64,000 nucleotides of DNA from a virus (lineage: Duplodnaviria; Caudoviricetes). The translations under genes and the position numbers were made by a program. How positions within the stretch are numbered: the first letter of the stretch is position 1; every line of letters starts with the position of its first letter. The stretch lies in IMG/VR virus record IMGVR_UViG_3300012974_000540, positions 1-64,000 of that record; one strand, given 5' to 3'. Below, piece by piece: positions 22,431 to 46,621 of this stretch. The notes below the pieces were generated by a model, which was given only the letters and a program-made list of their open reading frames with translations, had not been told where the DNA came from and did not search any database.

Positions 22431-22480
22431 CTCCTCATCAGGCCGGCATTGTGCCAGCGACCCCCTGAGAGGGGGTTTCG
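22431..22480 (-). ncRNA. type II hammerhead ribozyme 1 (canonical core)
   Basis: C GAAA CCCCC-UCUCA-GGGGG UC / GCUGGC-ACAAU-GCCGGC CUGAUGA G. Confidence 0.85.
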
Positions 22481-22482
22481 GT

Positions 22483-22662
22483 TTACGGTGCCTCGGGGTC
22501 CTCGCCGTCATGCAGCGCGGCCACGTCACCGTAATCCTCGCCTGTCTCCTCGGCGATCCTCGCCAGGAGCATCTCGGTCGAAATCTCCGGGTCCGCCGTT
22601 GTCAGGCGGTCCCAGGCCGCGCGCACGGCGGCGATGCGTGCCTCCAGGCGGGGACGGCTCAT
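22483..22662 (-). CDS. hypothetical protein
   Basis: TGATG overlap with the upstream gene. Confidence 0.55.
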   Translation of the reverse strand: MSRPRLEARIAAVRAAWDRLTTADPEISTEMLLARIAEETGEDYGDVAALHDGEDPEAP

Positions 22663-23438
22663 CAGCCGTACGCCAGGCGTTGCAGCAGCTCGGCCGCCAG
22701 TCGTGGGTCCGTCTCGCATAGATCCTCCAGATCCGAGAGCGACATGCGGCGCAGTTCCGCCATGGCATCATCCACCCGCATGTCGAGCAGGGGTTCGAGG
22801 TCGGGCGCCAGGGCGCCGTCCAGCATGCCGTTGTGGCGGCCGGAGCCGCCCCAGGGCACGCCTTCCTCGTATTCCTCCTCATCCGACAGCCAGCTCAGGC
22901 CGCGCCGCCAGTTGAGGTTGCTGTAGCTGCACCCCTCCCAGTCCTGGAAGTGCCCGGTGCGGCGGAACTCGCCCCGGCCGTCGAGGAACAGGAGGCGGCT
23001 CCCGTAGGTGTCGTGCTCGATGAACCGCCAGAACGATTCCTGGTCCCAGAGGCCGGGATCGGATCGCAGCATCGGCCGCAGCGCCTTGCTGATCCAGGTC
23101 CAGGTGTCGGACTTGGTTTTGTCCGGCGTCGCGATGGGCAGGACGCCGTTGTGCATCAGCCAGGCCGTCGAGCCGTGCAGGTCGAGGATGGGGTAGGGAT
23201 GGGCCATGGCGTTGTTCACGTCGCCATGCGTGCGCCAGCGGAAATGGATGCCCAGCTCGCAATCCCGCACGCGGTCATAGGCCCGTTGGAATTCGGCCAT
23301 ATGGCGGGACTTCACGGCGCGGGTCCGGCCGCCGTCGTGATACATGAGGCCCCAGCCGTCGGGGTTGTCGTCGGCGCAGGCCTCCAGGGTCTCCGCCGGG
23401 ATCTCGACCCCGGCGGGTTTATGAATGATGACGCACAT
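22662..23438 (-). CDS. class II (Ntn) glutamine amidotransferase-like protein
   Basis: N-terminal MC; NPDGWG, HFRWRTHG, HPY, MHNG and SDT motifs. Confidence 0.85.
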   Translation of the reverse strand: MCVIIHKPAGVEIPAETLEACADDNPDGWGLMYHDGGRTRAVKSRHMAEFQRAYDRVRDCELGIHFRWRTHGDVNNAMAHPYPILDLHGSTAWLMHNGVLPIATPDKTKSDTWTWISKALRPMLRSDPGLWDQESFWRFIEHDTYGSRLLFLDGRGEFRRTGHFQDWEGCSYSNLNWRRGLSWLSDEEEYEEGVPWGGSGRHNGMLDGALAPDLEPLLDMRVDDAMAELRRMSLSDLEDLCETDPRLAAELLQRLAYG

Positions 23439-23445
23439 GGTGCGG

Positions 23446-23500
23446 TGATCCTTTTCAAGCCCGCTGATGTGCGGGCGACCCCCGAAGGGGTTTCGGATCA
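23446..23500 (-). ncRNA. type II hammerhead ribozyme 2 (compensatory U3-A8 core, 6-bp stem II)
   Basis: UGAUCC GAAA CCCC-UUCG-GGGG UC / GCCCGC-ACAUCA-GCGGGC UUGAAAA GGAUCA. Confidence 0.9.
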
Positions 23501-24748
23501 GCGTTCCTCCGCCAGCACCGGAGGCGTCTTCCGCAGCGTGATGTAGCCGTTTGCCTGCATCCAGGCCGCGAGGTCCGGGTGATCCTTGCGGTTCTCCGGC
23601 TGGCCGAACCAGGCGCAGAAATCCTCGGCCCGGAGCGCCGCGGCGCTGGTCCATTGGCAGAAACGGCAGATCGCGTGCGCGAACTCCAGCGCCCGGAAGA
23701 AGCCGGGCCTGCTGACATTCGAGCGGAAGATGCGGATCTCGATGGTGCGGTATTGAACGCTGGGGCCGGCGGCGTCGTAATGCCCCCGGCCCATCTTGCG
23801 GATCTGGGTGGGCGTGGTGTCCCCCCAGAACTGGACGTAGCTGTTTCCGTTGCGTCCGGCGATGTGGGTCACGAAGGGGCGGTTGTCCTCGCTGTGCAGG
23901 AAGCACATGAGCTTGCCCGCGGCGAGGTCACCCAAAGCACGCCGATCGACATGGACGTGCAGGCCGAAGTCGCCCGGCGCGGTCCAGCCGCGCAGCTGCG
24001 ATGCGTCGTGGGTGAAGAAGGTGTCCCACAACTCGCGATGCGCCGCGAGGGTGGCGGGCACGGTCGCGATCTCGAAGCCGCCATGCTCGCTGACGGAGCC
24101 GTCGTGCTTCAGGATCGCGAAGTCGTCCACCGAATCCCTCACCTCATCCACGATCCTGGAGCGATCCACGCCCCGGCGCGGCATCACCTCCAGCTCCACC
24201 CCGAGCCAGAGCGTCGGGAGGGCGCTGGGAGGCTCCTTGTCGGCGCGCAGGAAGCCGGAGTGGGTCGCCAGGGGATCTGCCGTGTTGGCCATCAGGCCCG
24301 GATGCTCGTCCTCATCCTCCGGCTCCTCCGGCGGCTCGTGCTGGTCGTGGCAGGCCTCGCAGAGCCAGCCGTAGCTGGGGTGCCGCTCGGCATAGAGCAT
24401 GTCGCGCTGGAGGCACCGGTCGTCGCAGTGGTCGCAGCGCCGGATGTCGTCCTCGGAGCGGGCGGAGACCCAGCCATCGGGATCATCGATCTCCAGGCCG
24501 GTCGCGCTCGTGGTGAGGTGGCGGGAGTTGGCTTCGCAGTTGTGGATCGTGGTGTCGAGGAACTGCTCCAGCCATTCGCGCGCCACCGGGCGGGGGGCTA
24601 CGACGGCTCGGCAGCGGGCGGCGTGCTGGCACAAATCTTTATAGATCTGCAGCAGCAGCTCGTCGGCCTCGTCGTCGTGGATGGTGCTTTCACCGTAATG
24701 GTGATGATGAATCCACAGCGTCCGGAAGTCGGACAGTCTGGTGGTCAT
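23498..24748 (-). CDS. putative amidoligase (COOH-NH2 ligase family)
   Basis: GVELEV, KHDGSV, FEIAT, GLHVHV and TIEIRIF motifs; adjacent to the GATase. Confidence 0.75.
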   Translation of the reverse strand: MTTRLSDFRTLWIHHHHYGESTIHDDEADELLLQIYKDLCQHAARCRAVVAPRPVAREWLEQFLDTTIHNCEANSRHLTTSATGLEIDDPDGWVSARSEDDIRRCDHCDDRCLQRDMLYAERHPSYGWLCEACHDQHEPPEEPEDEDEHPGLMANTADPLATHSGFLRADKEPPSALPTLWLGVELEVMPRRGVDRSRIVDEVRDSVDDFAILKHDGSVSEHGGFEIATVPATLAAHRELWDTFFTHDASQLRGWTAPGDFGLHVHVDRRALGDLAAGKLMCFLHSEDNRPFVTHIAGRNGNSYVQFWGDTTPTQIRKMGRGHYDAAGPSVQYRTIEIRIFRSNVSRPGFFRALEFAHAICRFCQWTSAAALRAEDFCAWFGQPENRKDHPDLAAWMQANGYITLRKTPPVLAEER

Positions 24749-24756
24749 GATGATCG

Positions 24757-24816
24757 GTCTCTCTCATCAAGCCGGCGAAGGTGCCGACGACCGCCTCGGG
24801 GGCGGTTTCGAGAGAC
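24757..24816 (-). ncRNA. type II hammerhead ribozyme 3 (7-bp stem II)
   Basis: GUCUCUC GAAA CCGCC..GGCGG UC / GUCGGC-ACCUUC-GCCGGC UUGAUGA GAGAGAC. Confidence 0.88.
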
Positions 24817-24826
24817 GGGAGGGCGA

Positions 24827-25294
24827 TCAGCCCCAGCTCGCCGCTTCGTACTCAGGCAGGCCGCTCACGATGATCTCCCGGACCTGGTCGCAGGTGCCGC
24901 GCAGATCCCGATAGATCGCCGTGTCCGAGAACTGGTCGCCCTCGTTGCATTGGTAGAGGAAGCAGTCCAGGGCCTTCAGCCCGTCGCAAAGGGCACCCCT
25001 GTGCTCCGTTGTGTCGTAGCGCAGAAAGAGCCGGTCGCGTGGCGCCCGGTAGGCGTCGTGGAGGGCGGCCAGGGCCGCGTCGGCCTCCGGCTCCTGGTGG
25101 TGCGGATAGCGGTAGGCCACCGCCGCCCGGTTCAGTTGGAACATGGCGCGGGGCAGGCCGTCCAGGTCGTCCATCTGCGCGCTGCTCAGCACATAGGTGT
25201 CGATCTGGCGGGCGACCTGCCCGAGCCATGTTTGCGCAGTCAGCAGGGTCATGATCCGGTCCATGACGTCGTTCTCGATCACGAAAGCGGACAT
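24827..25294 (-). CDS. hypothetical phage protein
   Basis: MSAF..; LN..AVAYRY; KALDCFLYQCNEG. Confidence 0.7.
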   Translation of the reverse strand: MSAFVIENDVMDRIMTLLTAQTWLGQVARQIDTYVLSSAQMDDLDGLPRAMFQLNRAAVAYRYPHHQEPEADAALAALHDAYRAPRDRLFLRYDTTEHRGALCDGLKALDCFLYQCNEGDQFSDTAIYRDLRGTCDQVREIIVSGLPEYEAASWG

Positions 25295-25338
25295 CAGGCG
25301 CGGCTCTCCTGCTGCTGGTGTGGGCTCATGGTGGGGAT

Positions 25339-25390
25339 GTCTCCTCATGCCCGCTGATGTGCGGGCGACCGCCATGCGAGGGCGGTTTCG
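25339..25390 (-). ncRNA. hammerhead-like 4 (AUGAGGA core)
   Basis: CGAAAC-stem III-GUC-GCCCGC ACAUCA GCGGGC-AUGAGGA-G. Confidence 0.75.
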
Positions 25391-25393
25391 GGC

Positions 25394-25756
25394 TTAGTGC
25401 TCGTCCGGCAGGTAGAGGGTCCAGTTCGCCAGCCAGAGAGTCACCTCCCGCATCGGGAAGGTGGTGAAGGGGATCTTCTGGCTGGTGACGCGGTTCTCGT
25501 TTCCGTCCGTGCAGATCAGCTCGGCCTTGCTGGTGGCGAGGTCCACCTTCAGCGTCCAGACCTGGAACTCCTCGGCTTTGACCTTGGGGTCGGTCTGGTG
25601 CGAGCCGATGGCGTCGAGAAGCCAGTACGCCTCGGCATTGTCGGCGAGGTACTTCACCCCGGGGGTGAAGACGAAGCGCCGCATCCAGTGATGGTAGCGC
25701 TCCAGGTCGCCGCAAAAGTAGGACAGTCCGGACGTCAGTTCGCCTTCGCTGAGCAT
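25394..25756 (-). CDS. DUF6876-like protein
   Basis: FTPGVKYLADNAEAYWLLDAIGS, FQVWTLKV, DGN and LYLPDEH motifs. Confidence 0.75.
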   Translation of the reverse strand: MLSEGELTSGLSYFCGDLERYHHWMRRFVFTPGVKYLADNAEAYWLLDAIGSHQTDPKVKAEEFQVWTLKVDLATSKAELICTDGNENRVTSQKIPFTTFPMREVTLWLANWTLYLPDEH

Positions 25757-25761
25757 GGTTT

Positions 25762-25816
25762 GTCTCCTCATCAAGCCCGCTGATGTGCGGGCGACCCCCG
25801 AGGAGAGGGGGTTTCG
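25762..25816 (-). ncRNA. hammerhead-like 5 (UUGAUGA core; anti-SD in loop III)
   Basis: GAAA CCCCC-UCUCCUC-GGGGG UC GCCCGC ACAUCA GCGGGC UUGAUGA GGAGA. Confidence 0.8.
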
Positions 25817-26074
25817 CTAGTGGTCCGGCGGGATGACCGGCGCGCGCGGCAGGGTCTCCAGGGTTCCCACGCAGGCGAAGGCGACCAGGCGCACGGTGTA
25901 GCCCTGGCCGGCCACCTTCATGGCGTGCGGCCGCAGGCTCTCGATGCGGTCCCTGTCGGCGCCGATCATGGGCATCTCGCCGAGCGGCGTGCTGAGGGCG
26001 GGGATGCCCTCGCCGCCCCGGCTGTCGGTGGCGATCCAGGCGTAGAGGGCGTCGATTTTAAGCGGCGGGCTCAT
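25817..26074 (-). CDS. hypothetical protein
   Basis: Array gene; ends at the ribozyme boundary. Confidence 0.6.
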   Translation of the reverse strand: MSPPLKIDALYAWIATDSRGGEGIPALSTPLGEMPMIGADRDRIESLRPHAMKVAGQGYTVRLVAFACVGTLETLPRAPVIPPDH

Positions 26075-26307
26075 GCCTCGTCCGCCTCGTCCTCGTCCGC
26101 CTCATCCTCCTCGATCACGACCTGGCCGACGCGGTTGCCGTTGATGTCGCGCACCGCGAAGCGGGTCGGGCCGTTCGGGCGCCCGCTCTCGCGAAAGCGC
26201 TCGGCGGCCTCCTCCAGGATGCGCGCCACCTCCTCGCCGTAGCCACCGCCGCTTTCCTCGTGGAAGGCGGCGTTGCCGGTGTCGATCTCAATGGTGATCT
26301 TGCTCAA
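26071..26307 (-). CDS. hypothetical phage protein
   Basis: I.IDTGNAAF...EVARIL...RDINGNRVG; TTG start after the ribozyme SD. Confidence 0.7.
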   Translation of the reverse strand: MSKITIEIDTGNAAFHEESGGGYGEEVARILEEAAERFRESGRPNGPTRFAVRDINGNRVGQVVIEEDEADEDEADEA

Positions 26308-26313
26308 GTGTTT

Positions 26314-26364
26314 GTCTCCTCATGCCCGCGACGCGCGGGCGACCGCCACGGGAGGGCGGTTTCG
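26314..26364 (-). ncRNA. hammerhead-like 6 (AUGAGGA)
   Basis: Same architecture as the other copies. Confidence 0.75.
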
Positions 26365-26403
26365 GGTGGGATGGGAGGCCTGCGCCCCCCATCCCGTCTG
26401 CGG

Positions 26404-26661
26404 TTACCGGTCCTGGTGCCAGGACTGGCCCTGGCGCTCGTCGAGCCATCGGCTCACTCGGGCTTCCAGTTCGTCGGTCTGCGCGCGGGTGAGCGTGCCG
26501 TGCTTCTCTTGGACGGCATCGTCGTCGAGATAGTAGAGCTCGATCGCCGCATGAGCAGTCCAGCCCTCGCTGTAGGGCACCCGGTTGACCCGGCTGTTAT
26601 CGACCAGTCCTTCCACGACCTCGGCGAAGATGGCGTCGAGATCGGCGGGTTCATCAGGCAT
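26404..26661 (-). CDS. hypothetical protein
   Basis: AGGGAG RBS then MPDEP. Confidence 0.5.
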   Translation of the reverse strand: MPDEPADLDAIFAEVVEGLVDNSRVNRVPYSEGWTAHAAIELYYLDDDAVQEKHGTLTRAQTDELEARVSRWLDERQGQSWHQDR

Positions 26662-26927
26662 GAGCTTCTCCCTTGTCCGGCGGAAGGCCGGCGCCGCCTG
26701 CGCGGCGGGGAATGGGGGTTGCCGCTCGCTGCTGCGAAGTCGCCCAGGAACACGGTATGCCCACTCCGGCTCCGGCGAACCAGAGGGAGATAGCGGGTCG
26801 GATAGGCCCAGGTGCTGTAGTCCAGGCGCGACTGCGCGAAGGCCGCGGCGACGGCTTCCTCCGGGGTGATGCCCAGGAAGACCAGCTCGCCACCACCCGC
26901 CAGGTCGTGGACAGTCACAGGGGTCAT
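26454..26927 (-). CDS. hypothetical protein (3' part overlaps the next ORF)
   Basis: Start directly after the ribozyme SD. Confidence 0.5.
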   Translation of the reverse strand: MTPVTVHDLAGGGELVFLGITPEEAVAAAFAQSRLDYSTWAYPTRYLPLVRRSRSGHTVFLGDFAAASGNPHSPPRRRRRPSAGQGRSSCLMNPPISTPSSPRSWKDWSITAGSTGCPTARAGLLMRRSSSTISTTMPSKRSTARSPARRPTNWKPE

Positions 26928-26930
26928 GGT

Positions 26931-26973
26931 GTCTCCTCATGCCCCGGATGGGGCGACCCCCGAGGGGGTTTCG
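26931..26973 (-). ncRNA. hammerhead-like 7 (AUGAGGA, short stem I)
   Basis: GAAACCCCC..GGGGGUC GCCCC AUCC GGGGC AUGAGGA G. Confidence 0.72.
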
Positions 26974-26992
26974 GTTTTCGCCGGCGAAAGGT

Positions 26993-27349
26993 CTAGAGCG
27001 AGATGATGGCCCCGCGGGAGATGATGAACGTCTCCCATCGGAGCTTCTGCAAGGCCCGGAACCTCTCGTCGCGGCGCGCCTCGAAATGGGCGAAGCTGCG
27101 CTTGTCGTCCGCCTGCCGGATGCTGGTGGTGATCACCGGATGGCTCTCGCCCGCCAGCTCGCCGGTCATCCAGCGGCTGTTGCCGTGGCAGTCCAGGCGG
27201 CGATCCAGCTCATAGCCGAGATCCGCCAGGCGCTGCTTGGCTTCGGCCAGCCGCAGGGGCGTCATGCCCCTGCGGACCATGTACTCGGCCGAGCGGCGGG
27301 CGCGGTCGTCGCGCAGGGACGCCAGGAGGCGTTCGGTCTGGGTCGGCAT
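26993..27349 (-). CDS. hypothetical protein
   Basis: Array gene. Confidence 0.6.
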   Translation of the reverse strand: MPTQTERLLASLRDDRARRSAEYMVRRGMTPLRLAEAKQRLADLGYELDRRLDCHGNSRWMTGELAGESHPVITTSIRQADDKRSFAHFEARRDERFRALQKLRWETFIISRGAIISL

Positions 27350-27356
27350 GGCGGCC

Positions 27357-27644
27357 TCAGAAGTAGGGCGTGAGTTCGCGGCCCCAGGCGCGGACCAGGC
27401 GGCTGATGATGATCTCGCGCACCTCGGTGTCCCAGATCTCGCCGTGAGCGGGCTCGACGGCGTTCATCTTGGCGGTGAGGCGGTCGTAGATCACCTGGTC
27501 GCTGTCCTTCGCCTTGGTCTCCTCCTTCATCTCGGCGATGATCCGCGCCGCGGCGCGGTTGCCATCGTCGCTGAACATCCCGCAGTGATCGGGATGGTTG
27601 AAGCCGATCTCGCGTGCTTCGTCGGCGTCGTCCATATCGGACAT
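27357..27644 (-). CDS. hypothetical protein
   Basis: GMFSDDGN.A..., HGEIWDTEVRE. Confidence 0.65.
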   Translation of the reverse strand: MSDMDDADEAREIGFNHPDHCGMFSDDGNRAAARIIAEMKEETKAKDSDQVIYDRLTAKMNAVEPAHGEIWDTEVREIIISRLVRAWGRELTPYF

Positions 27645-27650
27645 GGTGTC

Positions 27651-27695
27651 CTCCTCATGCCCGCGAAGGTGCGGGCGACCCCCGGAGGGGTTTCG
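27651..27695 (-). ncRNA. hammerhead-like 8 (AUGAGGA)
   Basis: Same architecture. Confidence 0.75.
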
Positions 27696-27696
27696 A

Positions 27697-28071
27697 TCAG
27701 TGCGTGGCCGTGATCGTCAGCAGGCCGGGCGCGAAGGTGACCGTGACCATCCGTTTGTCCGGGAAGGCCAGCTCCACGTCGCGTCCGAGCAGGTCGATCA
27801 CCGGCTTGCCGTCCACCCTCCCGGTGACCTTCCGCATCCGGATGGTGCTGCCGGGCGGGCCCGCGAAGGGTTCCCGCTCGTGCAGCTCCTCCGGCGTGGG
27901 GATGGCGCAGACGATCCGGCCGGGCCGGTCCTCCTGCGGTGGGTGGACGATGCAGCGGTAGATCGTCCCGCCCCCGAACCCGGCGGCCAGCAGGCGCCGG
28001 CCGTCGAGCCAGATGCGGGGGCGGTTCTTGTTCCGGCCGATGCTGAAGTCGGCCTGGACGGTGGCGAGCAT
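27697..28071 (-). CDS. hypothetical protein
   Basis: IGRNKNRPRIWLDG..L..AGF; KPVIDL. Confidence 0.65.
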   Translation of the reverse strand: MLATVQADFSIGRNKNRPRIWLDGRRLLAAGFGGGTIYRCIVHPPQEDRPGRIVCAIPTPEELHEREPFAGPPGSTIRMRKVTGRVDGKPVIDLLGRDVELAFPDKRMVTVTFAPGLLTITATH

Positions 28072-28364
28072 CAGCCGCCGTCCAGCGCCTTGGCGGTCGC
28101 CAGGAGCAGCTCATGCGCCTCGCGGCACTGGTCCGCCGCGAAGCGTGGGTCCGTGACGCCCTGCTGGGCGTGCAGGCGGGCCAGCCGCAGGGTCTCCGCG
28201 ACCTGGGCCAGGAAGGCGTCCAGGTCGTTCAGGAGTTGCAGCACGTCTTCCAGGTCGTCGGGACTGGCGATGCCGGCCTCGATCAACTGGATATGCGCGG
28301 CCATGTTCTGCACGCGATCCAGCAGGGAATCCCCTGCCGGAGCGGCGGTTTGCTGTTGCTCCAT
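28071..28364 (-). CDS. hypothetical protein
   Basis: Start after the ribozyme SD; TGATG overlap. Confidence 0.6.
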   Translation of the reverse strand: MEQQQTAAPAGDSLLDRVQNMAAHIQLIEAGIASPDDLEDVLQLLNDLDAFLAQVAETLRLARLHAQQGVTDPRFAADQCREAHELLLATAKALDGG

Positions 28365-28372
28365 GTAGAGCG

Positions 28373-28419
28373 GTCTCCTCATGCCCGCGGGATGCGGGCG
28401 ACCGCTCAGGGCGGTTTCG
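28373..28419 (-). ncRNA. hammerhead-like 9 (AUGAGGA)
   Basis: Same architecture. Confidence 0.75.
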
Positions 28420-28432
28420 ATGGTCCTGGGAG

Positions 28433-28726
28433 TTACTCCTCCATCTGCTCCAGATGCTCCTCGATGGCCTGGCGGGCGTATTTGGCGGCATCGAAGACGG
28501 TCATGGACCGCCACCAGTCCTCCCTGTCGGGGGCGGTCTCTTCCTCCACGATGACCTCTTTGAGTTGGTCATCCCGCCAGAACCAGGCGTAGCTTCCGAT
28601 CCCCGACAGGGAGCGGGGCCGGAAGAACCAGGGAGCATCCTCGTCAGCACCCCTGATCGGCCAGCCCGTGACTTCGTAGCAGTCCAGTTGAGCGGTCACC
28701 GGCAGCTTGGCTTTCGCGATAGGCAT
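28433..28726 (-). CDS. hypothetical protein
   Basis: GGAG RBS then MPIAKAK. Confidence 0.6.
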   Translation of the reverse strand: MPIAKAKLPVTAQLDCYEVTGWPIRGADEDAPWFFRPRSLSGIGSYAWFWRDDQLKEVIVEEETAPDREDWWRSMTVFDAAKYARQAIEEHLEQMEE

Positions 28727-28817
28727 CAGGTTATCTCCGTCCGCCGCACTATGCGGCACCCCTTGTAGGGAAGTGTGACAGTCAGTCTGGACGGCGATCA
28801 GGGGGGTGATATGGGGG

Positions 28818-28865
28818 GTCTCGTCAGGCCCGCGCAACTGCGGGCGACCGCTCAGGGCGGTTTCG
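28818..28865 (-). ncRNA. type II hammerhead 10 (canonical CUGACGA)
   Basis: GAAACCGC..GCGGUC GCCCGC AGUUGC GCGGGC CUGACGA G. Confidence 0.82.
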
Positions 28866-28883
28866 CGTTTTCGCCGGCGAAAA

Positions 28884-29294
28884 TCAGGCCGTGTTCCGGT
28901 CCAGCCAGGCGAGCTGCTCGCCGATGCCCAGTCCATACATGGGCACCCTGTAGCGTGGCAGGTGCGGCGTCAGCGCCGCCCGGTAGGGTAGCCCGGCCAG
29001 GAAGACGACCGGCGGGATGGGATCGCCGCAGAGGTCGCGGAGCTGGTGCGCCACGCGGCTGCCCCAGCGGGCGCGTTCTGCGGCGTCGAGGTCGCGCAGC
29101 GTGAGGTCGTAGGGCTCCAGCACCTCCTCGGGGTCCACCAGCCCATGCTGGGCCGAGAGGATCATCCAGGGCGCGCCCTGGCGCTCGACGTAGCGCCGGG
29201 CCTTGGCGAACCATGGCGAGATGTAGAGGTCGCGGGCAATCCGCGCCTCGGGGGCCTTGGCCTTCACGCAGGCGACCAGGTGGAGGTCGTGCAT
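28884..29294 (-). CDS. DUF6884-like protein
   Basis: LVACVKAK...ARDLY.S.WF, W.ILSAQHGL, PYDLTL and GLGIGEQL motifs. Confidence 0.8.
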   Translation of the reverse strand: MHDLHLVACVKAKAPEARIARDLYISPWFAKARRYVERQGAPWMILSAQHGLVDPEEVLEPYDLTLRDLDAAERARWGSRVAHQLRDLCGDPIPPVVFLAGLPYRAALTPHLPRYRVPMYGLGIGEQLAWLDRNTA

Positions 29295-29299
29295 TCAGG

Positions 29300-29346
29300 G
29301 TCTCCTCATGCCGGTGAAAGTGCCGGCGACCGCCCGAGCGGTTTCG
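29300..29346 (-). ncRNA. hammerhead-like 11 (AUGAGGA)
   Basis: Same architecture; stem I GCCGGC/ACCGGC. Confidence 0.72.
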
Positions 29347-29351
29347 GTGGG

Positions 29352-29615
29352 TTAGGCCGCCTCGACCGGGGGCAGCCGGGCCTTCATGGCGCTGGCCTGG
29401 GCATCGGCCAGCAGCCGGAAGGTGCCGAGGTCGTGCAGGCGGTCCTGGCCGTCGATGATGATCCAGTAGGGATAATTGGCCGTGGGGTGTCCGCAATGGC
29501 GCACCTCCAGGCCTGGGTCGCGGATCGAGCGCCAGGCCACGGCCCGCCGGCGCTGGCCGTTGGTGTGCCAGGCGCAGGCTTCCCATCCCGCCATCACGAG
29601 GCGTTTGGTGGGCAT
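29352..29615 (-). CDS. hypothetical protein
   Basis: VRHCGHPTANYPY motif. Confidence 0.65.
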   Translation of the reverse strand: MPTKRLVMAGWEACAWHTNGQRRRAVAWRSIRDPGLEVRHCGHPTANYPYWIIIDGQDRLHDLGTFRLLADAQASAMKARLPPVEAA

Positions 29616-29619
29616 GTTT

Positions 29620-29665
29620 GTCTCCTCATGCCGGCGGAGGTGCCGGCGACCCCAGAGGGGTTTCG
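29620..29665 (-). ncRNA. hammerhead-like 12 (AUGAGGA)
   Basis: Same architecture. Confidence 0.75.
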
Positions 29666-29666
29666 C

Positions 29667-30038: not shown

Positions 30039-30042
30039 GTTT

Positions 30043-30085
30043 GTCTCCTCATGCCCAAAGACGGGCGACCCCCGGAGGGGTTTCG
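30043..30085 (-). ncRNA. hammerhead-like 13 (AUGAGGA)
   Basis: Same architecture. Confidence 0.72.
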
Positions 30086-30091
30086 GTAGGG

Positions 30092-30604: not shown

Positions 30605-30609
30605 GGGGT

Positions 30610-30661
30610 GTCTCTCATCAAGCCCGCGATGGTGCGGGCGACCTGACAGCGTCAGGTTTCG
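30610..30661 (-). ncRNA. hammerhead-like 14 (UUGAUGA; upstream stop codon in stem III)
   Basis: UC GAAA CCUGAC-GCU-GUCAGG UC GCCCGC ACCAUC GCGGGC UUGAUGA GA. Confidence 0.8.
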
Positions 30662-31295: not shown

Positions 31296-31298
31296 GTG

Positions 31299-39067: not shown

Positions 39068-39191
39068 CCCCCTTCCAGGAGCGCGCCGCGTGCCCTGCCT
39101 CCACCGCAGCCTCCGCCACCGCCGCCGTCCCCATGCCGGGGAGCGGGAGCCGGGCCGTGCCCGTGCCGCCGCCGCCGGGAGGGGTGCCACA

Positions 39192-39476
39192 GTGACGGCG
39201 CTGTTTCCGGAGCGCCCGGCCCGCCGCGGCCCGGCGCCGGCCGGCGAGTTCGGGGCCGAGCTGCAGGCGGTGGGCGCCCAGCTCGCGGTCGCCCTCACCC
39301 GCTCCCCCTTGCTGCCGCGCGACGTGGCGCGGCGCGCCAATGTCTCGATGCCCCGGCTGGAGGCGATCCTCGCCGGCCAGTGCGAGGACGTGACCGTGAC
39401 CGAGGTCGCGGCCCTGGCCGCTGCCTGCGGCATGCGGATGTCGGTCCGCTTCGAGCCGACCCGGCAGCCCTTCTGA
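39192..39476 (+). CDS. XRE-type HTH protein
   Basis: RDVARRANVSMPRLEAILAG. Confidence 0.6.
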   Translation: MTALFPERPARRGPAPAGEFGAELQAVGAQLAVALTRSPLLPRDVARRANVSMPRLEAILAGQCEDVTVTEVAALAAACGMRMSVRFEPTRQPF

Positions 39477-39486
39477 GGACCCCCTT

Positions 39487-40053
39487 ATGGACGCCCTGAC
39501 CGCCATCCTCACCCGCAATGACTCCGGCGGGCCCTACGACGCCACGGTGATGCCGCTCAGCATGGAGCGGGCGCTGCTCGGCCTGGTCGGCGACGCCGCC
39601 CGGCTGACGGAGCGGCTGCGGCGCGCCCGCTTCGAGGGGCGTCCTATTGACTGGGTCTTCGCCGACCAGCGCGCGGCCGAGATGCTGCGCTGCCTGGCGC
39701 TCTACGCCCGTGCCCGGGGCAAGGATCTCACCTTCCTCCAGGACATCCTGCTGCGGCAGCTGGGCGAGGTGCTTCCGCCGCCCCCGCCCCCGCCGCCACC
39801 GCCGCCGCCCGCCCAGCCGGCCCTGCCCATCGCCCTGCCGGCGCGGCGGGCGAGCACGCGCCGCCTCGGCAACCCGGGCGAGCGGAACGGCTCGGCCAAG
39901 CTGACCTGGGCGAAGGTCGCCAAGATCCGCGCCAGCAAGGAGGCGGGCGGCAAGGCCCGCGCCATGGCCGAGGAATGGGGCGTCAGCCTCGCCACCATCC
40001 ACGCGATCCTGGGCGGCCGCGCCTGGGCCGAGAAGGATTCACCCCGCGCATGA
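39487..40053 (+). CDS. hypothetical protein with poly-Pro linker and C-terminal HTH
   Basis: GERNGSAKLT...IR...A.EWGVS.ATI..I..G..W. Confidence 0.6.
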   Translation: MDALTAILTRNDSGGPYDATVMPLSMERALLGLVGDAARLTERLRRARFEGRPIDWVFADQRAAEMLRCLALYARARGKDLTFLQDILLRQLGEVLPPPPPPPPPPPPAQPALPIALPARRASTRRLGNPGERNGSAKLTWAKVAKIRASKEAGGKARAMAEEWGVSLATIHAILGGRAWAEKDSPRA

Positions 40054-40310
40054 ACGACACTGAGATCCAGGCCGAGGTGGGCGGCGTCGCCGCCGACCGT
40101 CTCCGCTCCATCATCGAGCGCGTCGAGCGCCTGGAGGAGGAGCGCAAGGCGCTCGCCGACGACATCAAGGACATCTTCACCGAGGCGAAGTCGGCCGGCT
40201 TCGAGGCGAAGGTGATCCGCCAGATCATCCGCCAGCGGAAGCAGGAGCCCGCCGAGGTGGAGGAGCAGGAGACCCTGCTCGACCTCTACCGCCGCGCCCT
40301 GGGGATGTGA
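40050..40310 (+). CDS. gapR: GapR (DUF2312) nucleoid-associated protein
   Basis: AADRLRSIIERVERLEEERKALADDIKDIFTEAKSAGF...LLDLYRRALGM. Confidence 0.92.
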   Translation: MNDTEIQAEVGGVAADRLRSIIERVERLEEERKALADDIKDIFTEAKSAGFEAKVIRQIIRQRKQEPAEVEEQETLLDLYRRALGM

Positions 40311-40311
40311 G

Positions 40312-40485
40312 ATGGGGCGTCGTCGTGCGAGCGGCATGAAAGACCCCTTCGCGGAGGGCTGGGACGCCTGCTGCGAAGGGGCCGGGCTGGAATCATGCCC
40401 CTACCCGGTGGCGAGCGGAGATGCCGCCCTCTGGATGGATGGCTGGCACGAGGCCGTGCATGAGAGGTTGTGCCAGGCGGCATGA
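40312..40485 (+). CDS. Rmf/CrpP-fold small protein (57 aa, below the ORF-track cut-off)
   Basis: EGWDA...G....CPY.......W.DGW. Confidence 0.6.
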   Translation: MGRRRASGMKDPFAEGWDACCEGAGLESCPYPVASGDAALWMDGWHEAVHERLCQAA

Positions 40486-40720
40486 TCGCGGCATCCGGGC
40501 CGGCCGCCTCCGTGTGGCTGGTCCGGCGGGGGTCCGGCGCTGGGCCGGTTGTGGGCCTCCTGCTGCGGGAGATCCCGCCCGGCCAGGAGGCGCTCTGCCT
40601 GCGGCGGCAGGAGGGGCTGGAGCGGCATCCGCTCGACTGGGTGGCCCGCGAGGTGCATCTGCAATGCGGCGCCGCGCTCGACGGCCTGCTGGGCTTTCTG
40701 CCGACGCCCCTCGATGTCGG

Positions 40721-41182
40721 CTAAAAGACGATGATGGGATTCCCGGTGAGGGGCACCTGCAGCATCCGCAGCAGGTCGGCGTATTCCGTCACCGACCGCA
40801 CCACGGCGTAGCGGTGGCCGAAGGCTTCGACGGCGGCCTGGAACTGCTTCTGCTCGCGGCTCTGGTAGGTGCGCTCGGTGAGCAGGCCCTGCGGTAGCTT
40901 GACCTCGACGAATGCGACGGCGCCGTGGGTGACCAGGATCAGGTCGCTGGCGCCCGGCAGCACGCCGGCATCGAGGAGGCGGGCGGCCTCGGCCCTGGCC
41001 CTGCGGCCGCCGTTCGGCACCGCGAAGAGCAGGGCGCGCGGGTCGGCGAAGCGGCGGTGGAACTCGACCAGCGAGGTTTGCAGGTCGTCCTCGGCGTGAC
41101 GCGGCGCCCGCCGGCGGCCCAGGATCGTGGAATGTTCGGCCAAGCCCCCTCGCGGCTTCACATCGCCCTTGCCGAGCTTCAC
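40721..41182 (-). CDS. VRR-NUC domain nuclease
   Basis: E..LQ, FAVPNGG.R, GV.PG.SDL, FVEVK, Q..FQ and VVRS motifs. Confidence 0.85.
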   Translation of the reverse strand: MKLGKGDVKPRGGLAEHSTILGRRRAPRHAEDDLQTSLVEFHRRFADPRALLFAVPNGGRRARAEAARLLDAGVLPGASDLILVTHGAVAFVEVKLPQGLLTERTYQSREQKQFQAAVEAFGHRYAVVRSVTEYADLLRMLQVPLTGNPIIVF

Positions 41183-41415
41183 ACGGAGCGGCTACCGATG
41201 TGAAGAGACGCAGCTTCCGCGATCGGCAGCAAGGCTCGTTCCAATCGGCGCACCGTGGCGAGGGATGGATTCCAATCCGGATCTTCCATGTGACGCAGCG
41301 TGTTGGCGTGGACACACGCCTTCTCGGCGAGGACGCATTTCCGGAGCCCTGCGCTCCGGAAGGCCAGGCGGATCTCGGAAAGGACGGCGTCGATGCGGGG
41401 CGTGGAACTCTGCAT
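41179..41415 (-). CDS. Cro-like HTH regulator
   Basis: LAEKACVHANTLRHM...WNPSLATVRRLE; divergent from the cI-like gene. Confidence 0.7.
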   Translation of the reverse strand: MQSSTPRIDAVLSEIRLAFRSAGLRKCVLAEKACVHANTLRHMEDPDWNPSLATVRRLERALLPIAEAASLHIGSRSV

Positions 41416-41445
41416 GACGATGTGACCTATCACATCGTCATGTGA
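41410..41445. promoter_or_regulatory. two operators in the cro/cI switch
   Basis: CTGCATGACGATGTGA (41410-41425) and TCACATCGTCATGTGA (41430-41445). Confidence 0.75.
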
Positions 41446-41472
41446 CGCGGAACAAGACCAGGGGGTCGTTGA

Positions 41473-42351
41473 GTGATGGTAGTGAAGGCGTCGCAGCCTG
41501 CCAGGAAGAATCCTTCCGTGGGGGCGCGCGCGGAGGCGAAGCCTGTGGTCGTGCAGGTGAGCGCGGCCGAGGCGCGGCTGAGTGATTACCTCTCCGACGA
41601 AGAGGTGGAGCGCGACCGGCAGGGGATGCGCGACACGATGAAGCGCCTCGACCTGGTGCCGAACACCTGGGCGCGGGCAGCCGGGTTCCGCAACGCCAAT
41701 GCCCTCTACAACTGGTTGTCGGGCCGCACCCGGAGCCTGAGCCTGGATGTGCGGGAGCGGCTGGCGGCGGTGCTGCCCGGCGAGACGGCCTGGAGCATCA
41801 TCGGGCGGAAGCCGCCGCGGGCGCGGAAGAACGCGGTCGATGCGGTGATGCGGCAGGTGCCGATCCGCACGGCGGCGCGGGCCAGCCTCTGGCGGCGCGT
41901 CTATGAGCTGCCGAAGCGGGAGCGGGGCAGCATCCTCGCCGTCGCGATGCCCGACAACGACATGGATATCGCCGTCCGCATCGACGACGACAGCATCAAC
42001 GAGCTTTATTCCGCCGGCTCCTATGCCCTGGTGCATAGCCTCCGGCCCCAGGATCGGCTGCGGAACGGCGATGTCGTGCTGGTGGAGCGGCGCCGTGTGC
42101 GCGCCGAGGCCGAGACGGTCGAGATCACGCTGCGCCAGGTCGTGGTGACGAAGCAAGGGGCCGTGCTGCGCTGGCGCAGCCTGAATCCGGACTTCCAGGG
42201 GGACGTGCCCATGCCCTGGCCTTACGAGGGGGGGAAGCCCTTCACCAACCTGCAGGAGCCGAAATTCGCGATCCACAAGCGGTCGGTCTATCGGATCACC
42301 GGCGTGGTGGTCACCGTGCAGACCATGGCGCGGCGCATCTTGAACGGCTGA
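41473..42351 (+). CDS. CI-like repressor (HTH plus S24/LexA-like C-terminal domain)
   Basis: WARAAGF.NANALYNWLSGRTRSLS; RIDDDSINELY..GS, GDVVLV, E.TLR and SLNPDFQ motifs. Confidence 0.75.
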   Translation: MMVVKASQPARKNPSVGARAEAKPVVVQVSAAEARLSDYLSDEEVERDRQGMRDTMKRLDLVPNTWARAAGFRNANALYNWLSGRTRSLSLDVRERLAAVLPGETAWSIIGRKPPRARKNAVDAVMRQVPIRTAARASLWRRVYELPKRERGSILAVAMPDNDMDIAVRIDDDSINELYSAGSYALVHSLRPQDRLRNGDVVLVERRRVRAEAETVEITLRQVVVTKQGAVLRWRSLNPDFQGDVPMPWPYEGGKPFTNLQEPKFAIHKRSVYRITGVVVTVQTMARRILNG

Positions 42352-42389: not shown

Positions 42390-42430
42390 TTGACTTTCCA
42401 CCTTCACATCACATAGCTGTGTGATGTGAA
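42390..42430 (+). promoter_or_regulatory. promoter (-35 TTGACT) with a 26-bp palindromic operator variant
   Basis: TTCACATCAC-ATAGCTGT-GTGATGTGAA. Confidence 0.6.
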
Positions 42431-42446
42431 GAATGGGTGGTGCCGC

Positions 42447-44081: not shown

Positions 44082-44552
44082 TTACAGGGAAATCGGCGAA
44101 TAGAAGCCGAGCCGGGCGGCGTGCGCATCGAAGGGCCGGCAGCCGGTCTTGATCCATTGGATGATGTGCTGGAGGTCGGTGCCCATCGGGAAGCCCAGGA
44201 AGGCTTCCTCGGTGAGGCCGTCGCCGCCCAGCTCGATCTCCTGCAGCGCATCCCAGACGCGGATCGCTTCCGGGAGGCCGAAGGGGCCGTGGCACCACTC
44301 GTCGGGCACCAGCTGGTGCTCGCGCCAGAAGGCGCCGGTCTCATCCTGCACGACCTGCTGCCCGTCGATCCGCAGGGGCGTCGGGGTGTTCCCGGCGCTG
44401 TAGGGGTGGCCATCCGTGTGCGTGTCGATCTGCGGGATGCGCCCATGATCCGTCACCAAGAAGGTGGCTTTGCTCACGGGCGCGCATTGGTGGGCCACGA
44501 GGACCAGGCCCGAGATCAGATCGCCGGTCGGCGAGCGCAGAAGGGTGTTCAT
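44082..44552 (-). CDS. hypothetical protein
   Basis: Start after ribozyme 25; EE.FL.FP.GT....I..W. Confidence 0.65.
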   Translation of the reverse strand: MNTLLRSPTGDLISGLVLVAHQCAPVSKATFLVTDHGRIPQIDTHTDGHPYSAGNTPTPLRIDGQQVVQDETGAFWREHQLVPDEWCHGPFGLPEAIRVWDALQEIELGGDGLTEEAFLGFPMGTDLQHIIQWIKTGCRPFDAHAARLGFYSPISL

Positions 44553-44558
44553 GGGTCT

Positions 44559-44610
44559 GCTTTCTTCAAGCCGGCGGGAATGCCGGCAATCCCGGAACGG
44601 GATTTCTAGC
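44559..44610 (-). ncRNA. hammerhead 25 (UUGAAGA, AUU site, covaried stem III)
   Basis: GAAA UCCCG-UUC-CGGGA UU GCCGGC AUUCCC GCCGGC UUGAAGA. Confidence 0.75.
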
Positions 44611-44980
44611 TCTGCACCAGCGCGGTGACGGCGATCACGCGCTGGCGCTGGTCCTTCACGGGGGCGAATTGCGGCCCCGATCCGGGAAATACCACGTCCG
44701 GCCGGCTCATGCCCCGCTGGCGGAGCAGCAGGGCGGTGATCTGGGAGACGATGTGGAAGGTCCCGGCGCGCGGTGGCGGCAGGCCGACCACGTCGCCGTA
44801 GATCGGTGGCGGCTCGATCCGCACGCCGTCCGCCTCGGCCGGCTGGCCGCAGGGGTGGACGACGACGCGCGCCACGGTGCCGCTCGGGGGCACCATGCGC
44901 ATGCCGGTGGGGGTGGCGAGCATGACCGGATGTGGGGTGAGATTCACGAACCGCTCGCAGGCGGTCGCTGGTGTCGGCAA
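44606..44980 (-). CDS. conserved phage hypothetical protein (NLTPH family)
   Basis: VNLTPH, PPSG.VARV, GLP.P and IVS motifs. Confidence 0.72.
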   Translation of the reverse strand: MPTPATACERFVNLTPHPVMLATPTGMRMVPPSGTVARVVVHPCGQPAEADGVRIEPPPIYGDVVGLPPPRAGTFHIVSQITALLLRQRGMSRPDVVFPGSGPQFAPVKDQRQRVIAVTALVQS

Positions 44981-44987
44981 AGGTCGG

Positions 44988-45037
44988 TTCCTCTTCATGC
45001 CGGCGGGATGGCCGGCGACCGCCAGGTGGCGGTTTCG
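44988..45037 (-). ncRNA. hammerhead-like 26 (AUGAAGA)
   Basis: Same architecture. Confidence 0.75.
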
Positions 45038-45042
45038 TTTTA

Positions 45043-45354
45043 CTACCACTCGAAGGTGGGCAGTCCTTCCACATCCTCGCCGTCGCCATGCAGGTTGATC
45101 CACCAGCAATCGTGCTGGCGGGCCAGCCGCATGATCCCGAGGAAGGCGTCCGACATGCCGCGCTGGCGCAGCTCGGCGTCGGTTTCGCGGGCGCTGTCGC
45201 TCGGGCAGTTGATGAACCACCCGATCTCGTGGTGGATCACCCGCACCGGGAAGTCATGGCTCTCCCGGTCGAGGGCCTGGAGGCGGTCGTTGTCGGCCTT
45301 CGGGATGTGGCCGGTGGAGATGTTCAGGAAGTGACGAATGGCGTCGTCGGCCAT
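45043..45354 (-). CDS. DUF5983-like protein
   Basis: L.ISTGHI...D, GWFI and A....C.WI...DG.....LPTFEW motifs. Confidence 0.7.
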   Translation of the reverse strand: MADDAIRHFLNISTGHIPKADNDRLQALDRESHDFPVRVIHHEIGWFINCPSDSARETDAELRQRGMSDAFLGIMRLARQHDCWWINLHGDGEDVEGLPTFEW

Positions 45355-45359
45355 GGTTT

Positions 45360-45405
45360 GTCTCCTCATGCCCGCGGGGTGCGGGCGACCGCGAGCGCGG
45401 TTTCG
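45360..45405 (-). ncRNA. hammerhead-like 27 (AUGAGGA)
   Basis: Same architecture. Confidence 0.75.
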
Positions 45406-45454
45406 TGGATGTGGAAAAGGCCCCCCTGCGCGCGGGGCGACAGGGAGGCCTTGG

Positions 45455-45736
45455 TCACGCCCGCCGGCGAAAGCCGACGAGATGCTGCAAGCAGTCGTCC
45501 AGGCTTCCATGCGCGATCCAGATCTTCGTCTGGGCCGGCTTGTGCGCCACGCCCTCGGCCGTCGCCAGGAAGTCCGTGTCCCAGAGGGAGAGGAACTCCA
45601 GGCCGTAGCCGAGGGTGCCGTGGCGGTCGGCCTCGATGTCGTGGGTGGCGAGCATGCCGCACAGGTGGCGGCCGCCGTACACGGTTCCGGGCTTCATCGC
45701 GTTTTGGACGTTCTGCAAGGTTTGCGGTGAGAGCAA
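45455..45736 (-). CDS. hypothetical protein
   Basis: TTG start after the SD of ribozyme 28. Confidence 0.55.
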   Translation of the reverse strand: MLSPQTLQNVQNAMKPGTVYGGRHLCGMLATHDIEADRHGTLGYGLEFLSLWDTDFLATAEGVAHKPAQTKIWIAHGSLDDCLQHLVGFRRRA

Positions 45737-45741
45737 GGGGT

Positions 45742-45795
45742 TTCTCCTCATCGGCGGCGCGGATTGCGCCGTAGCCCCGAGGGGCTTTCGGAGAA
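45742..45795 (-). ncRNA. type II hammerhead 28 (CCGAUGA core, CUA site, 6-bp stem II holding the SD)
   Basis: UUCUCC GAAA GCCCC..GGGGC UA CGGCGC AAUCC GCGCCG CCGAUGA GGAGAA; all stems differ in sequence from the other copies. Confidence 0.8.
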
Positions 45796-45833
45796 GCGAG
45801 CGGCCCACCGGGGCGGGCCGCTCGACACGTTTG

Positions 45834-46097
45834 TCAGGCCAGCAGCAGGTATTGCCGCAGGTGCCGGCTGGCGGCCTCTGCGCGCTTGTGCAGGACGGCC
45901 TGACGGGCCTGGCCGAGCACCTCGGTGCTCCGGTCCATCTTCTGGCTGACATCCTCGGGGATCGCATCGCCGTAGAGGGCGGTGAGCTGGGCCGAGCGTG
46001 CCAGCAGGATCGCCACCTCGGTCTCCACGGCGGCGCGCAGGCGCTCCAGGGGGAGCGTGGCGACGGTGGCGAGGAGGTGGGCTTCGATGTGGCTCAT
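45834..46097 (-). CDS. hypothetical protein
   Basis: Start after the type III hammerhead. Confidence 0.6.
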   Translation of the reverse strand: MSHIEAHLLATVATLPLERLRAAVETEVAILLARSAQLTALYGDAIPEDVSQKMDRSTEVLGQARQAVLHKRAEAASRHLRQYLLLA

Positions 46098-46104
46098 GGG
46101 TGGT

Positions 46105-46159
46105 CTCTCTTTCGCCGGATCTGCGGCTTGTCAGCCCGGCCGCCTGGCCGGGAAGAGAG
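46105..46159 (-). ncRNA. type III hammerhead-like 29
   Basis: CUCUC UU CCCGGCC-AGGC-GGCCGGG CUGACAA GCCG-CAGAUC-CGGC GAAA GAGAG. Confidence 0.75.
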
Positions 46160-46189
46160 TCCCCCTCCCCGTAGGGGAGGGGGGAGAGA

Positions 46190-46564
46190 TCAGTCGTCCA
46201 GTTCCGCCAGCCGCGTCAGCCGGTGGAGAGGGTGCGACGCCCGGTAGAGGACGATCTCCCGCTTGGTGACCTCGGCGACGATGTCCGTCACCGCCCGGAA
46301 GGCGGAGAGGACCAGCTCCGAGGTCATGTCGAGGTTGCCGGCGGTGCCATCCACCAGGTGGCGGAAGCGCATCCCGGCCTCCTCGGCCTGGTCCCGCTCC
46401 GGGAACTGGGCGGGCAGGTAGCAGAGCCGGCTGCGGCCGTTCCCCTGGTTCGTCAGGGTGACGGCGACGGCGTGGCGGGTGTTCGACGTTTGGATCACGG
46501 CATAGCCGGCGGCGAGGCCCGGAAGGCCCGGCTCGCCGATCGGCAAGCTGATCGGGTGGTCCAT
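46190..46564 (-). CDS. hypothetical protein
   Basis: Start after AAAGGA of type III hammerhead 30. Confidence 0.6.
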   Translation of the reverse strand: MDHPISLPIGEPGLPGLAAGYAVIQTSNTRHAVAVTLTNQGNGRSRLCYLPAQFPERDQAEEAGMRFRHLVDGTAGNLDMTSELVLSAFRAVTDIVAEVTKREIVLYRASHPLHRLTRLAELDD

Positions 46565-46571
46565 GGGGGTT

Positions 46572-46621
46572 CCTTTCGCCCGAGTTGGGCTCAACAGCCC
46601 GGCGGGGGGGTGCCGGGTAGG
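46572..46621 (-). ncRNA. type III hammerhead-like 30 (A6U variant)
   Basis: CC UA CCCGGC-ACCCCCCC-GCCGGG CUGUUGA GCCC-AACUC-GGGC GAAA GG. Confidence 0.6.

Follow-up and report, generated by a model that had tools for sequence, protein, structure and literature searches.

Hammerhead-derived repeats with fused ribosome-binding sites at the gene junctions of two accessory-gene operons in an uncultured phage

The DNA analyzed here (the window) comprises positions 1 to 64,000 of the IMG/VR virus record IMGVR_UViG_3300012974_000540, a 93,342-bp contig of an uncultured phage that has 70% GC and is approximately 85% complete. Two arrays of small accessory genes lie on its minus strand. The long array (22285-36667) has approximately 32 genes, mostly without a known family, and its 3′ end is formed by an amidoligase-like gene (23498-24748), a class II glutamine amidotransferase gene (22662-23438) and two small open reading frames (ORFs), while the short array (44082-47175) has approximately seven genes and lies downstream of a sigma70-like promoter (47190-47219). 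The subject of this report is a short structured repeat with the fold of a type II hammerhead ribozyme, which recurs at the gene junctions of both arrays. A previous sequence-only reading of the window had described 27 such copies, a degenerate copy and two type III copies, and had proposed that they dice a single long early transcript into one- or two-gene mRNAs.

Approximately 30 of about 38 gene boundaries hold a copy, and the copy-free boundaries are mostly overlapping or near-abutting stop/start pairs, which corrects the earlier estimate of about one copy per gene junction. The upstream stop codon lies within 20 nt of the beginning of most copies, and at most window copies the next start codon follows 6-15 nt past residue 10.1. 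The short array (44.1-47.2 kb) carries six copies and the long array (22.3-36.7 kb) carries 24. The idea of a single long early transcript did not hold, as the copies occupy two minus-strand operons (44.5-46.6 and 22.4-36.7 kb); since a plus-strand replication block (37136-42351; primase/helicase, HTH and GapR-like genes, no hammerheads) splits the arrays, two transcripts have to be assumed. No sigma70-like promoter site was detected in 20-37.5 kb, and no sense-strand U-tract terminator at the repeats.

Using a structural descriptor of the type II order (GAAA, stem III hairpin, UH, stem I hairpin, NUGANRA), 27 folds were found between 22434 and 45790. All lie on the minus (coding) strand, the plus strand has none, and in 200 dinucleotide-shuffled versions of the 93-kb genome no such fold turned up on either strand. 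A covariance model built on 15 copies recovered the identical 27 folds and no others in the whole contig. These are the very copies that the sequence-only reading had listed, and it correctly recognized the type II fold and saw that the copies sit at gene junctions, in sense orientation. That reading had also pointed to the Rfam hammerhead models; by Hammerhead_II (RF02276), two of the 27 copies scored above the gathering score and 10 matched at E<10, with 25 below the Rfam threshold. In an alignment of 15 copies, 98% of stem cells pair and both sides have changed in 7 of 12 pairs, a level reached in none of 500 shuffles, and slid alignments give 29-43%; when relatives were included (57 copies), both-sided changes were present in 10 of 12 pairs. 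The covariation claimed earlier is therefore real, and it bears out a three-way junction with stems I and III closed and stem II open. The cleavage triplets (GUC, GUA, AUU and CUA), the 6-7 bp stem II of three copies (45789, 24809 and 23494), the compensatory U3-A8 copy (23494) and the U4C copy (45789) were all present as previously described. No twister, pistol or other ribozyme class was detected by Rfam in the window and the related arrays scanned.

Most of the catalytic core is strictly conserved. G5, A6, A9, G12, A13, A14, the A15.1-U16.1 pair and H17 are present in all 27 copies and U4 in 26, whereas N7 varies freely, as expected of a hammerhead. The NUGANRA consensus of the earlier reading fits these copies, but its first N conceals position 3, which is A in 16 copies, U in seven and C in four. 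The 3-8 pair is thus A·G in 16 copies, U·G in six, C-G in four and U-A in one, that is, Watson-Crick in 5 of 27 and absent in 22. In the following coordinates, all on the minus strand, the number in brackets is the position after which the cut is predicted, and the type II assignments rest on the descriptor. Four window copies are fully canonical: 36677-36721 (36703; copy 36720), the first of the long array; 28820-28865 (28846; copy 28864), from which the next start lies approximately 94 nt away; 23451-23495 (23477; copy 23494), which has the compensatory U3-A8 pair and a 6-bp stem II and is the best predicted cutter; and 22434-22480 (22459; copy 22479), the last of the array. Copy 45789 (45747-45790; 45772) has C3-G8 with U4C and a 6-bp stem II, and an A3·G8 alternative register fits it too.

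The A3·G8 copies fall into those whose core is itself a Shine-Dalgarno (SD) sequence, namely 45362-45405 (45387), 32389-32436 (32415), 31961-32010 (31987), 31301-31348 (31327), 30045-30085 (30067), 29622-29665 (29648), 29302-29346 (29328), 28375-28419 (28400), 27651-27695 (27677), 26933-26973 (26955), 26316-26364 (26341; 42.7 bits with RF02276) and 25341-25390 (25367), and the others at 44991-45037 (45017), 35623-35664 (35646), 35188-35233 (35214) and 34317-34361 (34343). The U3·G8 copies are located at 44562-44607 (44588; AUU triplet, without stem II), 34641-34687 (34667), 33783-33827 (33809), 30614-30661 (30640), 25767-25816 (25793; 41.4 bits with RF02276) and 24763-24810 (24789; 7-bp stem II). 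Three further folds are type III-like, each with a core fault. The one at 46621 (46572-46621; 46618), recognized by sequence and fold, has an A6U core and a 3-bp stem III, and that at 46154 (46105-46159; 46153) has a C3·A8 mismatch. The third, at 36186 (36135-36190; 36185), has A3·A8 and corresponds to the degenerate copy that the earlier reading had placed at 36160; it is a type II/III hybrid in which an upstream hairpin competes for the stem III arm and whose 3′ half extends into the beginning of the following gene. Thus the degenerate copy and the two type III copies exist as folds, but all three are faulty in the core.

Stem II has 0-2 bp in 24 of the 27 copies, and at least one pair (G10.1-C11.1) is present in 26. 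A pseudoknot between loop I and the 3′ tail, which many but not all type II hammerheads have, reaches 4 bp in 2 of 27 copies, with no excess over permuted tails (p=0.87). Pairing of loop I with its own 5′ flank or core was likewise no better than with those of other copies. An alternative register in which residue 2.1 serves as C3 was rejected because positions 1.1 and 2.1 covary as an ordinary pair. Loop I, the interior of hairpin I, contains AUC or AUU in 97 of 145 copies versus 23 in shuffles (AUC alone, 43 of 86 versus 10), and positions 10.2-10.3 are mostly A; the loop enrichment is possibly a tertiary contact or a trace of homogenization.

The missing pair matters since C3-G8 belongs to the active core of the hammerhead (PMC3884650). 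According to the text of Perreault et al. (2011), it varies only to U3-A8 (PMC3088659). Complete pairwise mutagenesis gave low activity for every single change at C3-G8, with rescue by the swap only (PMC9901934), and C3G and G8C abolish activity (PMC11167929). Furthermore, fast cutting by a type II ribozyme whose stem II has a single pair depended on a pseudoknot of six pairs (PMC3088659). Structurally, the five copies that keep the Watson-Crick 3-8 pair qualify as type II hammerheads, whereas the other 22 lack this defining feature and are best called hammerhead-derived until assayed.

The loss of the pair is associated with a fusion to the translation signal. In twelve window copies with G7, the core itself spells the SD at the usual distance from the start codon, and a start codon lies 3-17 nt past residue 10.1 in 134 of 148 descriptor hits from the window and its relatives; in the relatives, this spacing is mostly 7-8 nt, in agreement with independent gene calls. 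On the evidence of sequence, the 3′ catalytic strand is, or directly precedes, the SD of the next gene. Among 145 pooled copies, which are not independent, the 3-8 Watson-Crick pair is present in 29, being kept in 7 of 95 SD-fused and 22 of 50 other copies. The pooled numbers carry a bias, as SD-fused patterns had been used to fetch some of the loci, but the same trend is evident in 44 copies from loci fetched by protein similarity, which are free of that bias. The non-SD-fused copies show weak residual 3-8 covariation (22 versus 17.4 expected, p=0.04). A stricter rule, the exclusion of C3 from SD-fused cores (0 of 60), was dropped when one phage (G001) added seven such copies. Among 54 matches to a hairpin-plus-SD pattern that required neither GAAA nor UH, 48 have UH and a GAAA-closed stem III in register; the other six comprise one with UH and without GAAA, two misregistered at real copies and three that are chance-like. 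Because these 48 keep GAAA and UH in register while N7 and the stems vary, the catalytic residues other than position 3 are under selection even in SD-fused copies, with a 5′ half that is not decaying. It was also observed that residue 11.1 is U in 16 related copies (junctions of loci L001, L003 and L057), in many of which the upstream UGA stop supplies U11.1, G12 and A13, so that the module takes up every base between stop codon and SD.

The family extends to other phages. Four loci (L001, L003, L057 and L059) that were fetched via the amidoligase protein (36-48% identity), not via the motif, carry 20, 7, 9 and 8 copies, respectively, and almost all junctions of the same array are occupied. 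Three of these 44 copies have a Watson-Crick 3-8 pair; in L057 every copy is U3·G8, and in the other loci most are A3·G8. Pattern searches revealed four virus records in which the model has 23, 17, 30 and 17 matches, one of these records being a complete 100.9-kb genome; the two records with 17 matches are probably one phage because their copies are shared at a fixed offset. These records have ERF or individual cassette genes in common with the window, but not the primase. Approximately 10 further contigs carry arrays, including metagenome contigs from pattern searches. Strict DNA patterns gave nothing in viral contigs, and the hairpin-SD pattern in viral contigs and a pattern in bacterial genomes gave isolated or chance matches only. 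No copy was found in 19 distant amidoligase loci (23-34% identity), and the element is therefore lineage-restricted. Canonical and non-canonical forms occupy equivalent junctions: G001 is largely canonical (11 C3-G8 among 21 copies), and L013 (6560-14620) has canonical type III hammerheads with long inserts alongside canonical type II forms, A3 type II forms and decayed copies, all of which end in an SD. The most altered form of the family is found in the complete 100.9-kb phage (G003), where most of the approximately 30 copies are A3·G8 without any stem II pair, with GAAA, UH and both hairpins intact. Outside the main array of this phage, a near-identical type II pair with a canonical core and without stem II is located at 6725 and 7999 of L069, 1.3 kb apart.

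The genes between the copies turn over. An amidoligase-like and a class II glutamine amidotransferase gene stand at the array end in four of four protein-fetched relatives, adjacent to each other in the window and L057 and separated by two genes in L001 and five in L003, and all but one of the added junctions carry a module. This pair is followed by a small ORF, a terminator-like hairpin (approximately 22245-22283 in the window) and genes for the YqaJ exonuclease, the ERF single-strand annealing protein and SSB, which in the window lie on the minus strand directly downstream of the long array (19834-22179) and are candidates for cassette-shuffling machinery. Few other cassette genes are common across the phages, and their positions differ where they are. 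Copies of one phage resemble each other more than those of other phages (p<0.001), exact shared stretches reach 34 nt, and hairpin I assorts independently of hairpin III. These features fit recombination of the copies with each other, for which YqaJ, ERF and SSB probably serve as the machinery. Two paralogous cassette genes (33829-34308 and 34692-35177; 36% identity), located one gene apart and each with its own module, are likely the result of a cassette duplication.

With regard to the wider genome, other assemblies match the contig at 13.5-34.7 kb with 99.97-100% identity, and no close cultured relative was found in INPHARED. The GapR-like gene suggests an alphaproteobacterial host. Since this gene is present and no match to a tyrosine integrase (PF00589) was found in the approximately 85% complete contig, the phage may persist in such a host as a plasmid-like prophage; genes for ThyX, a dCMP deaminase and a ParA/CbiA-like protein are located at approximately 13600-17950. 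A palindrome (TCACAT-N4-ATGTGA) and close variants recur at 19636-19720, 22223, 36831, 41431, 42402-42440 and 52300, with three tandem copies at 19.6-19.7 kb and others by the YqaJ start and in the divergent region at 36.8 kb. The palindrome resembles a repressor operator, and CACAT/ATGTG sites of a similar kind are present in promoter-like gaps of L003, L057 and L059. A Ro60/TROVE protein (Pfam TROVE, vWA_Ro60; 52025-54068) is preceded by structured non-coding stretches, one of which is tRNA-like; Ro60 systems are linked to the handling of damaged RNA ends. The 296-aa protein at 32441-33331 has a weak AcrVA2-like Pfam match on record and no match in a Pfam scan at E 0.01, and the match to the terminase large subunit spans only the first 171 residues of a 283-aa ORF (48160-50937).

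We propose that the repeat is a hammerhead-derived junction module that supplies a ribosome-binding site (RBS), cleaves efficiently in a few places but slowly in most, and enables recombination of gene cassettes, an account that we hold to be evenly balanced between right and wrong. Each copy would be a module of approximately 45 nt, of type II hammerhead descent, placed between a stop codon and the next start, with three roles. First, as the sequence shows, its 3′ catalytic strand supplies or directly precedes the SD of the next gene. Second, the early polycistronic RNA would be cut after the UH triplet, at rates that differ widely among copies. The canonical copies (36720, 28864, 23494, 22479 and probably 45789) would cut efficiently and split the operons into blocks, and the SD-fused A3·G8 and U3·G8 copies would cut slowly or partly because fusion of the SD into the core cost them the 3-8 pair; the operons would thus be in blocks quickly and in single genes only partly or late. 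An active hammerhead cuts 3′ of H17 and leaves 5′-OH and 2′,3′-cyclic phosphate ends. The upstream product would carry a 3′ hairpin with a 2′,3′-cyclic phosphate and the downstream product a 5′-OH hairpin followed by a free SD, and with a 1-bp stem II the two should separate at once. Such cutting would decouple the stability and translation of newly gained genes from those of their neighbors. Third, the copies would provide short DNA homologies by which gene-plus-module cassettes are gained, lost and homogenized, an exchange probably driven by the adjacent YqaJ/ERF/SSB recombinase. In analogy to the prophage clusters that were assayed (PMC3088659), the dicing into one- or two-gene mRNAs that was originally suggested is plausible where the copies are canonical, which few are; it is not established for most copies, which lack the C3-G8 pair (PMC9901934) and the loop I pseudoknot.

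Several points weigh against this proposal. Single changes at C3 result in low activity (PMC9901934) and C3G and G8C in none (PMC11167929), and the 6-bp pseudoknot on which the type II ribozyme with a 1-bp stem II relied (PMC3088659) is absent here. In G003, positions 10.1 and 11.1 are paired in only 6 of 16 copies, and insertions of 1-2 nt before position 3 are present in 12 of 148 hits, both of which look like relaxed catalysis. Moreover, a phage infection may be too short for slow cutting to matter, and the predicted ranking of rates is drawn from other hammerheads.

In a doubtful yet serious alternative, most copies are catalytically dead and only a handful still cut, the scaffold having been reused as a non-cutting cis-element, either as insulating, SD-exposing hairpins or as a site bound by a protein of the host or the phage, for example an RNase or a translation factor. 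The absence of a 3-8 Watson-Crick pair in 22 of 27 window copies and 41 of 44 protein-fetched copies, the lack of a pseudoknot, the loss of stem II in most G003 copies and the tolerated insertions before position 3 would all be expected of a dead scaffold, and the SD-fused A3 form could have arisen by a 3-nt slip of a canonical core plus SD, which is how Rfam aligns it. However, G12-A13-A14-A15.1, U16.1, H17 (never G) and U4-G5-A6 are fixed together with their exact spacing across approximately 14 divergent phage records, none of these catalytic residues is required by an SD or a stability hairpin, and a protein site needing precisely the catalytic residues would be a coincidence.

A more far-reaching and rather unlikely reading is that the copies form a natural hammerhead subclass, widespread in a group of phages, in which the SD acts as the catalytic strand and cutting proceeds without C3-G8, a pseudoknot or even stem II. 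Such a subclass would imply another active-site arrangement, a contact of the loop I AUY, a metal or a protein, and the nucleotides needed for self-cleavage would also be those on which the ribosome loads, a competition setting the processing and translation of 20-30 genes. The original version, in which all copies cut efficiently and dice the operons into one- or two-gene mRNAs, seems to us more improbable. It would need compensation by docking of the conserved loop I AUY on the A-rich tail, by a metal such as Mn2+ or by a protein, and each has some footing: AUC/AUU is enriched in loop I and 10.2-10.3 are mostly A, pairing of a U in stem I with an A in stem II is known to speed cutting (PMC2553840), Mn2+ rescues a natural phage variant with A6C (PMC7151607) and a Penelope hammerhead cuts only with protein present (PMC11167929). 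Nevertheless, the loop enrichment could reflect homogenization among copies, no fast A3·G8 hammerhead was found in the literature searched, and nothing except the 3-8 swap gave rescue in the full pairwise mutagenesis (PMC9901934).

Two further explanations are very improbable. Released gene units might rebuild the hammerhead, with the ORF as loop II, and ligate into single-gene circular RNAs or reshuffled mRNAs, as follows from the type II topology (each unit starts with stem I and core and ends with GAAA and stem III) and was raised by Perreault et al. (PMC3088659), but a stem II of 1-2 bp gives almost no hold on the ends, those authors found no such products (PMC3088659), and no RtcB, Rnl2-type ligase or reverse transcriptase was found in the 85% complete contig and no RtcB in three related records, although a host RtcB is possible. 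Alternatively, the repeats could be DNA elements only, that is, recombination or regulatory cassettes similar to PeSL or attC with an incidental hammerhead match, for which the gain and loss of cassettes at the repeats, their homogenization, the recombinase genes nearby and the PeSL precedent in T4-type phages (PMC2839356) speak, whereas the repeats have neither promoter nor sense-strand U-tract terminator, no tyrosine integrase was found, and the catalytic residues are invariant, are scored as hammerheads by Rfam and are embedded in stems whose G·U wobbles lie on the sense strand.

The role of self-cleaving ribozymes in phages has been a question since 2011 (PMC3088659, PMC6765202). The present family offers 20-30 natural variants, from canonical to heavily altered, in one operon context and in several phage genomes. 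If the A3·G8 or stem-II-less copies cut, a rule of hammerhead catalysis would need revision and standard searches would miss many ribozymes; if they do not, a ribozyme scaffold would have been converted to a role in translation or insulation and to a boundary of gene cassettes. In both cases, the copies are compact natural insulator-plus-RBS parts.

The closest known systems are those of Perreault et al. (2011), who described hammerheads that flank single genes in prophages, including a triple in Agrobacterium and pairs in Clostridium scindens and Azorhizobium (PMC3088659). They proposed processing into gene-length mRNAs, and the pairs and the triple cleaved in vitro and in E. coli (PMC3088659). 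Because this arrangement was described there with the same processing role, it is already known, and the novelty claimed by the sequence-only reading was overstated in this respect (PMC3088659); it was understated for the core, which is RBS-fused and non-canonical across a phage group. What is new is the scale and spread (17-30 matches in four other records) and the core. In the literature searched, whose coverage did not extend to the 2011 alignment, we found no array of 17-30 copies, no SD-core hammerhead family and no natural family dominated by A3·G8 or U3·G8. As in the Perreault clusters, co-oriented hammerheads with a very short type II stem II lie at the junctions of phage polycistrons with variable genes between them, and the identity of the flanked genes differs between phages here too. 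However, those clusters have 2-3 copies that cleave efficiently, whereas here there are 27-30 per genome, the core is SD-fused, the 3-8 pair is mostly missing and loop I forms no pseudoknot; cleavage by all members, as in the clusters, is predicted not to hold for the 22 copies without a 3-8 pair. Similarly, the repeat shares with RF02276 the order of GAAA, stem III hairpin, UH, stem I hairpin and NUGANRA, with two copies above the gathering score, but differs from it in having mostly A or U opposite G8, no pseudoknot and a stem II of mostly 0-2 bp, most copies being below the threshold.

A 2019 review of self-cleaving ribozymes associated with phage genes regarded their purpose as undetermined, with processing of polycistrons as a suggestion (PMC6765202). 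These bacterial ribozymes (hammerhead, twister, pistol and hatchet; PMC6765202) are comparable in that the setting is a phage-like accessory region. They are scattered and of mixed classes, whereas here one homogenized family occupies nearly every junction. Weinberg is said to have associated such ribozymes in 2015 with amidoligase and amidotransferase genes. Integron attC arrays have a cognate tyrosine integrase, and none was found in the approximately 85% complete contig. The PeSL cassettes of T4-type phages (Arbiol et al. 2010) are DNA cassettes with a promoter and a terminator (PMC2839356). They resemble the present repeats in being short and structured, in separating the non-essential genes of a hyperplastic region and in recombining so that gene modules are shuffled, but the repeats here have neither promoter nor terminator and carry a ribozyme core. 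In RiboJ synthetic insulators, the ribozyme cut leaves a 5′-OH hairpin just upstream of the RBS, and a 5′-OH hairpin ahead of the RBS is likewise predicted here. RiboJ is engineered, with a canonical core and a separate RBS, whereas the phage modules are natural and repeated, and their RBS lies inside the core.

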